DNA from: a virus
Lineage: Duplodnaviria; Heunggongvirae; Uroviricota; Caudoviricetes
IMG/VR virus record: IMGVR_UViG_2734482780_000014
Coordinates: 1-13,691 of that record
DNA: 13,691 nt
Strand: one strand, 5' to 3'
Shown: positions 5,061 through 7,503 of the stretch, one piece after another
Layout of the letters: each line of letters opens with the position of its first letter
Numbering within the stretch: position 1 is the stretch's first letter
Notes under the pieces: generated by a model
Database searches by the model: none
What the model was told of the DNA's origin: nothing
The model's input: only the letters and a program-made list of their open reading frames with translations
Translations under genes and position numbers: made by a program

Positions 5061-5423
5061 TTAACGACCTGCTGCGCGGAGTTTTCCGTCAGGTTCACCG
5101 GCAAGAGTCAGTAACTGTCCCTGGTCTTCCTGCAGAATAGTCAGGCGACCACCGCGATTGACATACATCGGCGTTTCGGTGGTGTCTTCTTCGGAAATTT
5201 TCCCGCGGTTAGTCGGGCGAACATATGAGAGTTTGTGTTTGATTTTCACACGGTTCTCATCAAATGGTTCGATTTCCAGGTTGAGTGAGACCTTACCTTT
5301 GGTTTTCGTGTTCATCACACCGGAAGCGACTTCACTGAGAACTGCGCCGATTTTGGTTTCAAATACGCCGCCGTCCAGCTCCCCGATAAATGCCTGCACA
5401 TCAGTACTGCGTTCGCTAGCCAT
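5061..5423 (-). CDS. yfdP: hypothetical phage protein, 120 aa (YfdP-like)
   Basis: ATG at 5423 preceded by GAGGAG at 8 nt. The upstream 106 codons of ORF 5061-5741 are Arg/Cys-rich read-through of GC-rich non-coding DNA and were excluded. Confidence 0.65.
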   Translation of the reverse strand: MASERSTDVQAFIGELDGGVFETKIGAVLSEVASGVMNTKTKGKVSLNLEIEPFDENRVKIKHKLSYVRPTNRGKISEEDTTETPMYVNRGGRLTILQEDQGQLLTLAGEPDGKLRAAGR

Positions 5424-5471
5424 TTTGCTGCTCCTCATCATATCGACCCTGCAAGGCCGATTAGTTTCTCC

Positions 5472-5560
5472 ACAAAACAGAGAAGAACACCTGCGGTGGC
5501 AGCCGCCCGGATGGATTGGGTTATGAGCCCGTCGTCCGGTGATGCTCTTCTCTGTTTTGT
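5472..5560. repeat. perfect 14-bp inverted repeat (ACAAAACAGAGAAG / CTTCTCTGTTTTGT) flanking a 61-nt GC-rich spacer
   Basis: Arms at 5472-5485 and 5547-5560 read directly; lies in a ~470-bp region with no credible ORF on either strand. Confidence 0.7.
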
Positions 5561-5824
5561 AAAAAGGACGGTACCAGCCGGAAGCAAGGGTACAAACTGG
5601 TACCTCCAGGACTACACACAGCATAAAGTTGTGGTGCCGGGTGCCTCCCGGTGCCTGGCGAAGGTTGCACACCAGACGGGTGGGTATCCACAGAAGGTCG
5701 ACTGTCAGCCTCAACCTTAACCCGCGTGCGCTGAGCCGCATTCACCACAACGCTAAGGATTCTCTCTGGTTAAAAATACTTAGCTGTTATGTGCCTGCTT
5801 TTAGCCACATCAGGCGAGGTGGAC

Positions 5825-5876
5825 CTGGTTATTCCCCAACAACAAGGATTCGGTTAATCTGGTTATCCCCAACAAC
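5825..5876 (+). repeat. two direct repeats CTGGTTAT(T)CCCCAACAAC with 34-bp period, immediately upstream of the 5892 start codon
   Basis: Copies at 5825-5843 and 5859-5876 differ by one T; further GGTTA motifs at 5767 and 5853. Confidence 0.7.
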
Positions 5877-5891
5877 GCAAAAGGAAAAGAA

Positions 5892-6326
5892 ATGTCCGGT
5901 AATATCTACACGCTGTACAAATCCCACTGTGAAAATGTTGGAAAGTATCGGGGCATTGAAATCAGTGGGGTAGTGTCATCAGTCGAAATAAGCAAAGTGG
6001 AATCAAGGGCAACATTACTTACTCTTCTGGACCTTGTCTTACATGAGCACCGGAAGAAATTCGGCACTCCCTATAATCAGTTGAATGGGAAAAAGGCTCT
6101 GGTTCACCTTATTCTGATGAAGCATCACTGGATGCCAAAACAGATTAATGAGATGAAATTTGATGAACTTCTTCTTTCAATTCAGGATGAACTCACACTT
6201 GATAAAATAAGCGTAACCGCCCAGAAATTTTTAGATTATCGAGACTGGAGATCACAAATTCATCACTTTGATGATTTTGACGAAAATGAATGGGATCCTA
6301 ATTTGTCTGCACAATATCTAAAGTAA
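5892..6326 (+). CDS. hypothetical protein, 144 aa; AT-rich moron opposite to the leftward early operon
   Basis: ATG at 5892 with AAGGA 6 nt upstream; clearly more AT-rich than flanks; no recognisable motif; acidic C-terminus. Confidence 0.7.
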   Translation: MSGNIYTLYKSHCENVGKYRGIEISGVVSSVEISKVESRATLLTLLDLVLHEHRKKFGTPYNQLNGKKALVHLILMKHHWMPKQINEMKFDELLLSIQDELTLDKISVTAQKFLDYRDWRSQIHHFDDFDENEWDPNLSAQYLK

Positions 6327-6504
6327 CATCCTGTGATAAAACCGTGATTTCCTGATCCAGTTTTTTTAAGGAGTCTATTGTTTCCTGTCGATAAGACAGC
6401 ACTTCACGAAGCTGGTTTATAGCTGCCAGCTTCTTTGCCATCCACTCGTAAATTTCCTCATCTGTGTAGCCAGGCGCGACGATTTTGGGTTCTGTTTTGT
6501 GCAT
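6298..6504 (-). CDS. hypothetical small protein, 68 aa (first gene downstream of candidate pL; acidic, coiled-coil-like, not N-like)
   Basis: ATG at 6504 preceded by GAGGAG at 9 nt; the ORF-track start at 6519 is TTG. Its 3' end overlaps the 144-aa ORF convergently by 29 nt. Confidence 0.6.
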   Translation of the reverse strand: MHKTEPKIVAPGYTDEEIYEWMAKKLAAINQLREVLSYRQETIDSLKKLDQEITVLSQDVTLDIVQTN

Positions 6505-6548
6505 TTCACATCTCCTCAAGTTATCAGTTACTTGTTGATGGGGACCAG

Positions 6549-6561
6549 ATTGTTAAAGAGC
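6549..6561 (-). promoter_or_regulatory. rrn-type boxA-like element GCTCTTTAACAAT in the pL leader RNA, immediately 3' of a hairpin
   Basis: Minus-strand sequence matches the remembered rrn boxA core (TGCTCTTTAACAAT...) at 13 of 13 positions; lies between candidate pL and the first leftward gene. Confidence 0.5.
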
Positions 6562-6671: not shown

Positions 6672-6699
6672 ATTATGTATCTCAAAGGTACATTATCAA
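6672..6699 (-). promoter_or_regulatory. candidate pL (-35 TTGATA 6699-6694, 16-nt spacer, -10 CATAAT 6677-6672) overlapped by GGTACATTAT direct repeats (putative OL)
   Basis: Hexamers read on the minus strand just downstream of the repressor terminator; GGTACATTAT copies at 6667-6676 and 6687-6696 overlap the -10 and -35. Confidence 0.45.
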
Positions 6700-6738: not shown

Positions 6739-7413
6739 TTAGGCTTTGATTTTGTATCTTCTTGGTTTTCCTGAGAAAATCACTGTACCAATTATAGAGC
6801 AATTACCGTTGATCTTAATGTAAGGCTCAGGCCAGTTTGGGTTTAACGCTTTGAGATAACGCTGTGTCCCATCTTCTATCAACCTTTTGAAGGTGGTTTC
6901 ACCTGTATCGTGCATCAATGCAATAACGTCGTCACCGTGGCAGGCAGGTACTTCAGGATCGACAAAAATCATGTCTCCCGGGCGGTACTCATCAATCATT
7001 GAATCACCTATCACCCGCAAGATATAAGTCATTTCCCCACAGGGTACAGGGCAGGGATACGTTTCTGCTGTGCTCAAATCAACCTCAGAATATCCAACTT
7101 CTTTCCATGCTCCGGCCTGTACCCATGATATGACAGGGACTAATGTGATTTGTTTATTAGTGATTGAAACATCAGGTTTTTTTGTGATGTTCGTTGTCTG
7201 GTGTTCTTGATCGAGCCATCCGACAGGCAGGTCGAAACATTTTTCGATGTGTCGTGCCATGCTGTCACCGATATTTTTAGTAGCACCATCTCCCATAAAC
7301 CTGCTGGTCTGGGTTGGCTCGCGATCAATCATAGTGGCAAAGGAAGAATTCCCGCCAACACCATCTCTCAGTTTTCTGGCGTTAGACCGCCGGATGTCAT
7401 GGATTGTTTTCAT
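6739..7413 (-). CDS. CI-type prophage repressor with C-terminal S24 LexA-like peptidase domain, 224 aa
   Basis: C-terminal region resembles P22 C2 (..VIGDSM.. and LNPNWPEPYIKINGNCSIIG vs remembered LNPQYPMIEINGNCKIIG); divergent to a cro-like gene across an operator region. Confidence 0.9.
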   Translation of the reverse strand: MKTIHDIRRSNARKLRDGVGGNSSFATMIDREPTQTSRFMGDGATKNIGDSMARHIEKCFDLPVGWLDQEHQTTNITKKPDVSITNKQITLVPVISWVQAGAWKEVGYSEVDLSTAETYPCPVPCGEMTYILRVIGDSMIDEYRPGDMIFVDPEVPACHGDDVIALMHDTGETTFKRLIEDGTQRYLKALNPNWPEPYIKINGNCSIIGTVIFSGKPRRYKIKA

Positions 7414-7428
7414 AACGAAATTAAAACC

Positions 7429-7449
7429 CTTGTACCGTTAAGGTACAAG
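7429..7449. promoter_or_regulatory. operator palindrome CTTGTACC-GTTAA-GGTACAAG (GTAC-N7-GTAC)
   Basis: Perfect 8-bp inverted arms in the repressor/cro intergenic region. Confidence 0.6.
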
Positions 7450-7453
7450 TATC

Positions 7454-7481
7454 TTGAAGGTTCATTTCAATCATGTAATAT
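7454..7481 (+). promoter_or_regulatory. candidate pR (-35 TTGAAG 7454-7459, 16-nt spacer, -10 TAATAT 7476-7481)
   Basis: Hexamers upstream of the cro SD GGAGG (7489-7493); the second operator overlaps the predicted start site. Confidence 0.4.
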
Positions 7482-7498
7482 GTACACCGGAGGTACAT
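7480..7498. promoter_or_regulatory. operator palindrome ATGTAC-ACCGGAG-GTACAT (GTAC-N7-GTAC)
   Basis: Same half-site and spacing as the 7429-7449 palindrome. Confidence 0.55.
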
Positions 7499-7503
7499 AT
7501 TGT

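Follow-up and report, generated by a model that had tools for sequence, protein, structure and literature searches.

The locus and its minus-strand RNA

The DNA considered here is a stretch of 13,691 nucleotides from a tailed-phage record of IMG/VR (IMGVR_UViG_2734482780_000014), referred to below as the window, in which an integrated SfV/SfIV/e14-type lambdoid prophage is accompanied by proA and a tRNA-Thr gene (1369-1441). On its minus strand the prophage carries int, a helix-turn-helix (HTH)/xis-like gene, yfdT, yfdR, yfdQ, and yfdP. Past yfdP lies a divergent moron of the ECs1072 family (5892-6326, plus strand), and beyond it are found a small minus-strand open reading frame (ORF), the minus-strand LexA/CI-type repressor gene ymfK (6739-7413), and, on the plus strand, a cro-like gene. 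Between yfdP and the moron, the initial annotation had described a GC-rich, non-coding block (5424-5760), dense in repeats, as either a structured RNA or the relic of a mobile or recombination site. This block is an RNA-level element with a conserved pseudoknotted fold encoded on the minus strand, and the repeats listed for it are the visible parts of a larger minus-strand RNA between the ECs1072 moron and yfdP.

The gap, given as about 470 bp, measures 468 bp from the yfdP start (5421-5423) to the ECs1072 start (5892), and its GC enrichment is moderate (0.55 at 5401-5700 and 0.60 in the core, against 0.38-0.46 in the flanks). A 601-bp stretch of the window is identical in many Escherichia coli chromosomes, a match to 5424-5760 is present in 2779 of 5426 complete E. 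coli genomes (about half), and Shigella phage SfIV is 99.8% identical to the window over 5424-5890.

The repeats themselves are where they had been reported. The perfect 14-bp inverted repeat (5472-5485/5547-5560) belongs to longer arms of 25 nt that are 84% complementary (5472-5496/5536-5560), the repeat GGTACCAG/CTGGTACC occupies 5570-5577/5597-5604, and GGTGCC/CCGGTGCCT direct repeats surround the hairpin CCGGG-TGCCT-CCCGG at 5637-5651. What had been overlooked is the minus strand and, on it, a 9-bp long-range helix, GTTGTGGTG/CACCACAAC, that closes the main domain. The repeats that had been stressed, the 14-bp repeat and the GGTACC... repeat, form flanking hairpins, and the conserved core is the domain within the overlooked helix. 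The core, its parts, and the hairpin before it are the following.

5752-5784, minus: P0, a hairpin directly 5' of the core, GCUAAGUAUU ... AAUCCUUAGC (inverted repeat I3, minimum free energy fold).
5623-5756, minus: core pseudoknotted domain of about 134 nt, a divergent STnc100/PasD-like subfamily (covariance model, covariation).
5743-5751, minus: P1 5' strand GUUGUGGUG, pairing with 5628-5636 and followed by an invariant AAU (inverted repeat I2, covariation).
5628-5636, minus: P1 3' strand CACCACAAC (inverted repeat, covariation).
5724-5739, minus: P2, GCG-[GCUCAGCGCA]-CGC, with an ACG/CGU compensatory variant.
5712-5718, minus: pseudoknot 5' strand AAGGUUG, pairing with CAACCUU (5661-5667) in the P4 loop (complementary combinations).
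5653-5677, minus: P4 hairpin GUCUGGUG-[UGCAACCUU]-CGCCAGGC, whose loop carries the pseudoknot 3' strand (5661-5667); 8 of 8 pairs change on both sides.
5637-5651, minus: P5 hairpin CCGGG-AGGCA-CCCGG, nearly invariant and the same in homologues found by BLAST only.

In this architecture the 9-bp P1 encloses P2, P3, P4, and P5, while the loop of P4 forms base pairs with the strand that follows P3. When folded as a minus-strand RNA, the region 5790-5424 reaches -155 kcal/mol (z = -5.5, with none of 100 shuffles as good), compared with -135 kcal/mol (z = -3.3) for the plus strand. The asymmetry is far larger at the level of the family: the covariance model R1, built from 31 sequences of the window subfamily, scores 109.2 bits (E 3.5e-30) on the minus strand at 5756-5623 and 7.6 bits on the plus strand. 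With filters off, R1 finds no second core copy in the window, including the rightward operon.

The most direct evidence for the fold comes from compensatory changes in homologues, a comparison that the initial annotation had proposed. Two IMG/VR pattern scans gave at least 120 DNA stretches each, with 159 unique variants among the matches listed. In an alignment of 66 distinct relatives, two-sided changes affect 27 of the 35 pairs (shuffled mean 17.6), standard pairs fill 82.6% of the cells against 69.7% after shuffling (0 of 500 as high), and covariation scores 0.357, compared with 0.155 after shuffling and at most 0.116 when partners are slid. P1 is paired in 96.8% of its cells and all nine of its pairs covary, and P2 and P5 are paired throughout (100%). 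This alignment was fitted to the structure and is therefore biased toward it, yet a plain MAFFT alignment gives the same outcome for P1, P2, and P5. Since loop lengths vary among clades, counting by columns gives too low a figure for P4 and for the pseudoknot, and both were analyzed sequence by sequence instead. P4 occurs with 62 distinct arm pairs (on average 6.6 of 7 positions paired), and the pseudoknot with 60 distinct complementary strand combinations among the 159 variants, the mean run being 7.4 nt versus 5.0 nt in shuffled loops. Besides AAGGUUG/CAACCUU of the window, these combinations include AAGGCUG/CAGCCUU, GACUGACA/UGUCAGUC, CAGUUAA/UUAACUG, and CCAGUC/GACUGG. The GGUGAAU and CCGGGAGGCACCCGG blocks were partly fixed by the search patterns, yet they are identical in the BLAST-only homologues. 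At the position of P0, Salmonella phage ST64B carries GAUAAGAGUU/AACUCUUAUC, a compensatory change from C-G to A-U.

These observations bear on both halves of the earlier interpretation. The structured RNA is borne out by covariation, strand asymmetry, and the relationship to STnc100 described below, whereas the mobile or recombination-site relic is not supported, the constraints being of the RNA type (G-U pairs, compensatory changes, and restriction to a single strand) and the element being intact and conserved in the functional phages SfV, SfIV, and ST64B. More broadly, a DNA-level site of any kind (a mobile-element relic, a recombination site, an operator, or an inverted-repeat origin) is a very improbable explanation. 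The dense inverted and direct repeats and the mosaic boundaries near 5608 and 5800 would suit it, but the difference between 109 and 7.6 bits on the two strands, the need for G-U pairs in the helices, and the covariation of the pseudoknot would not. In addition, the block shows neither flanking target duplications nor an associated recombinase, and the repressor operators are other GTAC palindromes located elsewhere. The prophage integrase gene (1459-2622) lies on the opposite strand, directly after the tRNA-Thr gene (1369-1441) that adjoins proA, and this junction is the likely prophage attachment site.

Relationship to STnc100/PasD and genomic distribution

The covariance-model scan that the initial annotation had called for, run permissively against Rfam, returns a single meaningful match: STnc100 (RF02076), on the minus strand at 5781-5559. 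The match spans the full model (1-206) with 38.4 bits (E 8.6e-7), which is under the gathering score of 47. Homologues of the subfamily score similarly (34-42 bits; 34.4-41.9), whereas the canonical copies tested score 61-148 bits. BLAST finds the central ~140 nt in Salmonella phage ST64B, in Cronobacter phage phiES15, and in the P1-like phages SJ46 and JL22, and these four copies also score just under the STnc100 threshold. The 159 variants fall into two groups, one being canonical STnc100 (AAU-CCCCC...GGGG) and the other the window subfamily (AAU-GCGGCU...).

Both groups share the closing helix GGUG...CACC followed by AAU, a P2 with a UNNGCG loop, P4, and the hairpin region with the invariant CACCGGGAGGCACCCGGCACC. 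The closing helix, P4, P5, and the GGUGAAU/CACCGGGAGGCACCCGGCACC blocks are found by cmscan, in a joint alignment of 97 variants, and by covariation. Their home is likewise the same, namely enterobacterial prophages and phages, and a hairpin with a U-tract often follows some 22-25 nt downstream. In contrast to canonical STnc100, P2/P3 of the window subfamily consist of GCG..CGC plus GGG/CCC, not CCCCC..GGGG; the subfamily resides in the early-left operon leader beside the repressor gene; its terminator is weaker or absent; and its pseudoknot is missing from the Rfam STnc100 consensus line shown by cmscan. Because of the sub-threshold score and the differences in P2/P3, genomic position, and terminator strength, the element is filed as a variant subfamily of STnc100/PasD.

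Members of the canonical family are known as small RNAs (sRNAs). According to the literature, canonical STnc100 copies are situated either downstream of stx2B or in the vicinity of Q and the lysis genes. One of them, EcOnc27 of enterohaemorrhagic E. coli (EHEC), is a species of ~235/247 nt that is destabilised without Hfq (PMC4104026 Table S2). PasD1 and PasD2 of enteropathogenic E. coli (EPEC) and STnc100 are reported to be prophage sRNAs detected by sequencing of ligated interacting RNAs (RIL-seq) and by northern blot, PasD being a structural homologue of STnc100 (bioRxiv 10.64898/2026.05.13.724894). A full-text search for the invariant 15-mer finds no searchable paper that contains it. What appears to be new is the pseudoknot, the connection with the early-left leader, and the reading of ymfH and the PGAP pseudogene as artefacts of this RNA.

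The position of the core is fixed: the repressor gene lies upstream of it and the first early-left genes lie downstream. In ST64B it lies between a cI-like gene and a yfdP homologue, and in phiES15 between the repressor region and kil. The order in SfV is cI, terminator, PL (the leftward early promoter), small ORF, element, and orf32 (YfdP), and no N gene is annotated there. Among nine diverse IMG/VR clades, the nearest co-directional upstream ORF is a CI-type repressor (HTH_3 with or without Peptidase_S24) in six, ending 200-550 nt before the core, and the ORFs downstream of the core include Kil and exonuclease-like proteins. In most clades the core is the first conserved feature past the repressor gene; in the window it is about 900 nt from the PL candidate, after a 68-amino-acid ORF and the antisense moron. 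The P1-like phages carry it directly upstream of tciA-tciB-tciC-tRNA-ban, and JL22 has a weaker second copy ~700 nt further upstream.

When a single genome of each species was scanned and the matches were confirmed with the model, members of the subfamily came from Enterobacterales alone (Escherichia, Shigella, Klebsiella, Citrobacter, Enterobacter, Lelliottia, Pseudescherichia, Buttiauxella, Pantoea, Mixta, and Ca. Phlomobacter), and its phage hosts span ten or more genera of this order. Outside it, pattern matches (Streptomyces, Rhizobium, and others) are unconfirmed by the model and were dismissed as chance. The N-encoding prophage Sp5 of O157 Sakai has no core copy in its PL leader. For this reason EcOnc20, a peak for EHEC Hfq in cross-linking and analysis of cDNA (CRAC) that sits in the Sp5 N leader, was rejected as a homologue.

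Several loci show further variation of the core. A third, distant core type, in which P5 is GCCGG-AGAUCAGCA-CCGGU and R1 gives about 30 bits, is found in mEp460 and in Stx2c phages (L223, L224 2692-2836). It lies directly upstream of the same terminator-hairpin-yfdP module (T1-H2-yfdP) described below, which suggests that core variants are exchanged as cassettes. Two or three diverged core copies occur within 0.2-1 kb in the IMG/VR loci L013, L017, L026, L027, L032, L071, and L075, and further multi-copy loci are L007 (1807-1951) and L151 (6675-6813). ST64B additionally holds a full-length match to the sRNA IsrK near sb41 (L004 21-97, minus; 64.3 bits, above the gathering score), overlapped by a weak c4-a1b1 match.

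Protein annotations and downstream modules

The claim that the block contains no credible ORF holds in that the region is non-coding, although it passed over two features that cross it: a 226-amino-acid ORF (5061-5741) and a feature at 5438-5748 (minus) that the Prokaryotic Genome Annotation Pipeline (PGAP) labels a frameshifted hypothetical protein. The former, starting with ATG at 5741 on the minus strand, is the yfdP frame left open through the leader by chance; its extension is rich in Arg, Cys, and Pro, is not conserved, and constitutes a trap for gene callers. The latter has a homologue in the e14 prophage of E. coli K-12 that is 89% identical and annotated as ymfH, of 103 amino acids. 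Homology to a decayed protein-coding gene, which the initial annotation had named as evidence against a structured RNA, is thus apparently at hand, but the annotation is an artefact.

The e14 copy (L222 2689-2821) departs from the P5 hairpin, invariant elsewhere, by a 1-nt deletion and a G-to-A change, and scores 94.7 bits with R1 compared with 109 for the window. An alignment of the window, e14, and ST64B indicates that the ymfH ORF is open in e14 because the invariant A of the P5 loop has been lost (CCGGG-GGCACCCGA), fusing two frames. On this alignment the window retains the ancestral RNA sequence, and e14 probably holds a damaged copy of the RNA. That the block is a decayed gene, a frameshifted ymfH as PGAP has it, is accordingly very hard to sustain. 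The PGAP label, the K-12 gene, and a match between one tiny PHROG family of annotated ORFs (33599) and a 49-amino-acid ORF speak for a gene; yet the K-12 frame exists only through a deletion in an otherwise invariant loop, and the substitutions compensate base pairing. In a set of 59 distinct members of the subfamily, the distances that separate invariant blocks are spread over every phase (25/26/8), which argues against coding, column entropy by codon position shows no three-nucleotide periodicity (1.02/0.97/0.96), and any open sense frame is present in only 39 of the 59. A Pfam scan gives no family matches. A protein-coding ymfH was rejected on these grounds (Pfam and PHROG scans, frame and phase analysis, e14 comparison), and the structured-RNA evidence means that the protein labels (hypothetical protein, frameshifted pseudogene, ymfH) should be dropped.

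Between the core and yfdP, the leader continues with the following features.

5610-5627, minus: single-stranded linker UUUAUGCUGUGUGUAGUC of 18 nt, with the recurrent motif GUGUG(U/G/A)AGU.
5561-5609, minus: T1, a terminator-like hairpin with an 11-12-bp stem including GGUACCAG/CUGGUACC, a 17-19-nt loop, and U5 (repeat, hairpin scan).
5465-5565, minus: H2, a long hairpin with a 20-24-bp lower helix (5472-5491/5541-5560) and a structured apex (repeat, minimum free energy fold, consensus fold).
5443-5460, minus: H3, a short hairpin before the yfdP ribosome-binding site (minimum free energy fold).
5421-5436, minus: end of the leader and start of yfdP, with the Shine-Dalgarno sequence GAGGAG at 5431-5436 and ATG at 5421-5423.

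The linker motif recurs 10-20 nt after P1 in several clades with unrelated downstream hairpins. A search of the window for the complement of the linker, as a putative seed, returns only the self match. T1, whose stem includes the GGTACCAG/CTGGTACC repeat, is not listed by a consensus terminator scan because the loop limit of that scan is 8 nt. At its position ST64B has another stem, GUCGGCGUC/GACGCCGAC, giving five compensatory pairs, phiES15 has a canonical terminator, and a fourth clade has another long-loop hairpin with a U-tract. Thus four clades whose stem sequences are unrelated have a hairpin plus U-tract 21-28 nt after P1. Under one permissive scan, such a structure follows ~24 nt downstream in 76 of 93 canonical STnc100 copies, versus 95 of 454 random windows. 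Within the subfamily, 60 distinct contexts divide into 32 with a terminator-like hairpin and 28 without one, and some of the clades without it have an ORF start 30-45 nt after P1.

H2, which corresponds to the 14-bp repeat and whose base uses the T1 U-tract, is kept as a helix in e14, ST64B, and mEp460; in e14 and ST64B it shows one full compensatory change and several switches between G-U and G-C. A consensus fold of four homologues retains both T1 and H2, with 8 of 50 pairs compensatory. With at least 20 bp of nearly uninterrupted helix, H2 has the length of a candidate RNase III hairpin. In relatives with another downstream gene, a different hairpin (GCCCC-UAC-GGGGGC) takes the place of H3. 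The module boundaries are mosaic, falling near 5608, just after H2, and near 5800: different core types precede the same T1-H2 unit, and different genes follow H2.

A conserved pseudoknotted domain of about 130 nt with invariant junction nucleotides, followed by variable modules, could also be a riboswitch-like aptamer that tunes the early-left genes through varied expression platforms, either a terminator or a start-codon region. Such platforms would be in keeping with the intrinsic terminators of some clades and with the ORF start that others place 30-45 nt away, and also with a complementarity present in most relatives of the window clade, between the P4 3' arm CGCCAGG and a CCUGGCG located at the T1 base. 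However, the window itself has CCUGGAG at this base and the alternative pairing is absent in ST64B; being found in most E. coli relatives but not there, it is unproven. Neither in the canonical nor in the window type does P1 overlap the terminators, there are no ligand-related genes nearby, and Rfam gives no riboswitch match. An aptamer is therefore improbable, if somewhat less so than a decayed gene or a DNA site.

Proposed role in the early-left operon

The interpretation that we regard as probable is that the block is a folded non-coding leader of the leftward (PL-type) early operon, with a divergent STnc100/PasD relative as its core, and that it exerts control as a terminated sRNA or as a leader. 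It may function as a terminated sRNA, as a cis-acting leader control, or as both. Leftward transcripts would fold the core as they are made, and a fraction of them would stop at T1, yielding an RNA of ~200 nt. This RNA would be built like its validated Hfq-dependent relatives, with a structured 5' domain, a conserved single-stranded linker (GCUGUGUGUAGUC), and a terminator, and the linker GCUGUGUGUAGUC could act as a seed or as a binding site. Other transcripts would read through into yfdP-yfdQ-yfdR...xis-int, and H2 might serve as an RNase III-type processing or stabilising site, setting the leader apart from the yfdP message. A conserved molecular partner is implied by the near-invariant GGUGAAU and CACCGGGAGGCACCCGGCACC.

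Several observations weigh against this proposal. Within 100 nt upstream of the core, no sigma-70-like promoter is found in the window or, with any consistency, among its relatives. In lysogens PL is repressed, and taken together these two points mean that the RNA may arise only after induction. A terminator-like hairpin is missing from about half of the subfamily contexts, and in 16 of 60 an ORF starts 30-70 nt beyond the core, for which a cis-acting element of the 5' untranslated region fits better than a free sRNA. The loop of T1 itself is unusually large (17-19 nt) and its U-tract is limited to U5, and the putative RNase III role of H2 is deduced solely from the length of its helix.

The general layout resembles the lambda N leader (nutL plus an RNase III hairpin) and lambda 6S/StxS: a long structured leader stands before the first early gene, a hairpin of at least 20 bp lies just upstream of the ribosome-binding site, and a short terminated leader RNA could act in trans. 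Unlike the lambda N leader, the block contains neither boxA nor boxB, the boxA of the prophage being ~800 nt upstream (6550-6561).

The region around this boxA holds other candidate regulatory sites on the minus strand. A PL candidate (-35 TTGATA at 6699-6694, -10 CATAAT at 6677-6672) directly follows the ymfK terminator (6727-6708) and is overlapped by GTAC-type operator half-sites. GTAC palindromes (TTGTACCGTTAAGGTACAA, ATGTACA..GGTACAT) recur in the cI-cro intergenic region (7430-7500, PR/PRM) and at the PL candidate (6672-6699), and are probably the repressor operators. Approximately 95 nt downstream of the PL candidate lies the hairpin AAGCGCCCUACAGGACGCUU (6582-6563), and immediately 3' of it an exact rrn-type boxA, GCUCUUUAACAA (6561-6550); together they look like a nut-like or rrn-like antitermination site. 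The ORF behind boxA (6298-6519), the first of the PL operon, encodes 68-73 amino acids, belongs to phrog_1744, is acidic, and is not N-like.

Closer to the core, the stretch 5792-5876 (minus) contains direct repeats GTTGTTGGGGA(A)TAACCAG at 5859-5876 and 5825-5843 and, 3' of them, the hairpin CCAC-CUCGCCUGAU-GUGG (5805-5822) followed by CUAAAAGCAGGCA. A hairpin and tail of this kind occur upstream of the core in many unrelated clades (consensus ACCAC-CGAGCCUGAA-GUGGU GAAAAGACAGGCA, with a covarying stem), always between the core and the start of the divergent moron, be it ECs1072, ymfI, or the small SfV ORF. It may represent a promoter region or else one more RNA hairpin.

Antitermination offers the main alternative reading of the position of the core. 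Phage HK022, a lambdoid phage without N, carries put (putL/putR), an RNA-only processive antiterminator that lies as a structured RNA just past the early promoter and ahead of terminators and early genes (PMC9378689), and the position and logic of the core appear alike. The core could thus be a cis-acting processive antiterminator, an analogue and not a homologue of put, which would bind RNA polymerase, alone or with Nus factors, so that PL transcripts pass T1 and later terminators without N. It seems to occupy the place of putL/nutL: past the repressor gene no other conserved feature precedes it, and it runs in the same direction as the early-left genes, often with a terminator-like hairpin directly after it. 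Annotation and one translation reveal no N-like gene (the first PL ORF is the acidic 68-amino-acid one, and none is annotated in SfV or ST64B), and the PL leader of the N-encoding Sp5 has no copy. The core also heads the tciA-ban operon of P1-like phages, some clades lack terminators, and the invariant nucleotides and pseudoknot would suit binding to a conserved host machine.

Even so, we consider this antiterminator unlikely. The put sites are ~70 nt long with two stem-loops, unlike the core with its ~134 nt, five helices, and pseudoknot, and the window has no second copy in its rightward operon. Homology to put was rejected after putL and putR had been located in HK022: they share no motif, sequence, or structural similarity with the core, and neither R1 nor Rfam finds anything in the HK022 immunity region. 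Moreover, the PL leader already has an rrn-type boxA, and canonical relatives accumulate as discrete terminated sRNAs of ~240 nt, which would be unexpected if the core suppressed the next terminator. A wider version of the idea is held just as tentatively, namely that the core and its relatives form a new class of leader RNA, binding RNA polymerase or a conserved host factor and gating the early operons of N-less temperate enterobacterial phages, with the STnc100/PasD sRNAs as terminated by-products. If true, this would be a second RNA solution beside HK022 put and unrelated to it.

For the family as a whole, the results extend STnc100/PasD to a subfamily that the Rfam threshold leaves out, and add a well-supported pseudoknot to it. 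This subfamily heads the early-left operon in lambdoid phages, as well as an operon in P1-like phages. Its position, its invariant nucleotides, and the putative terminator that follows it make early-left control testable in phages of the SfV/ST64B/e14 type, which have no recognisable N.

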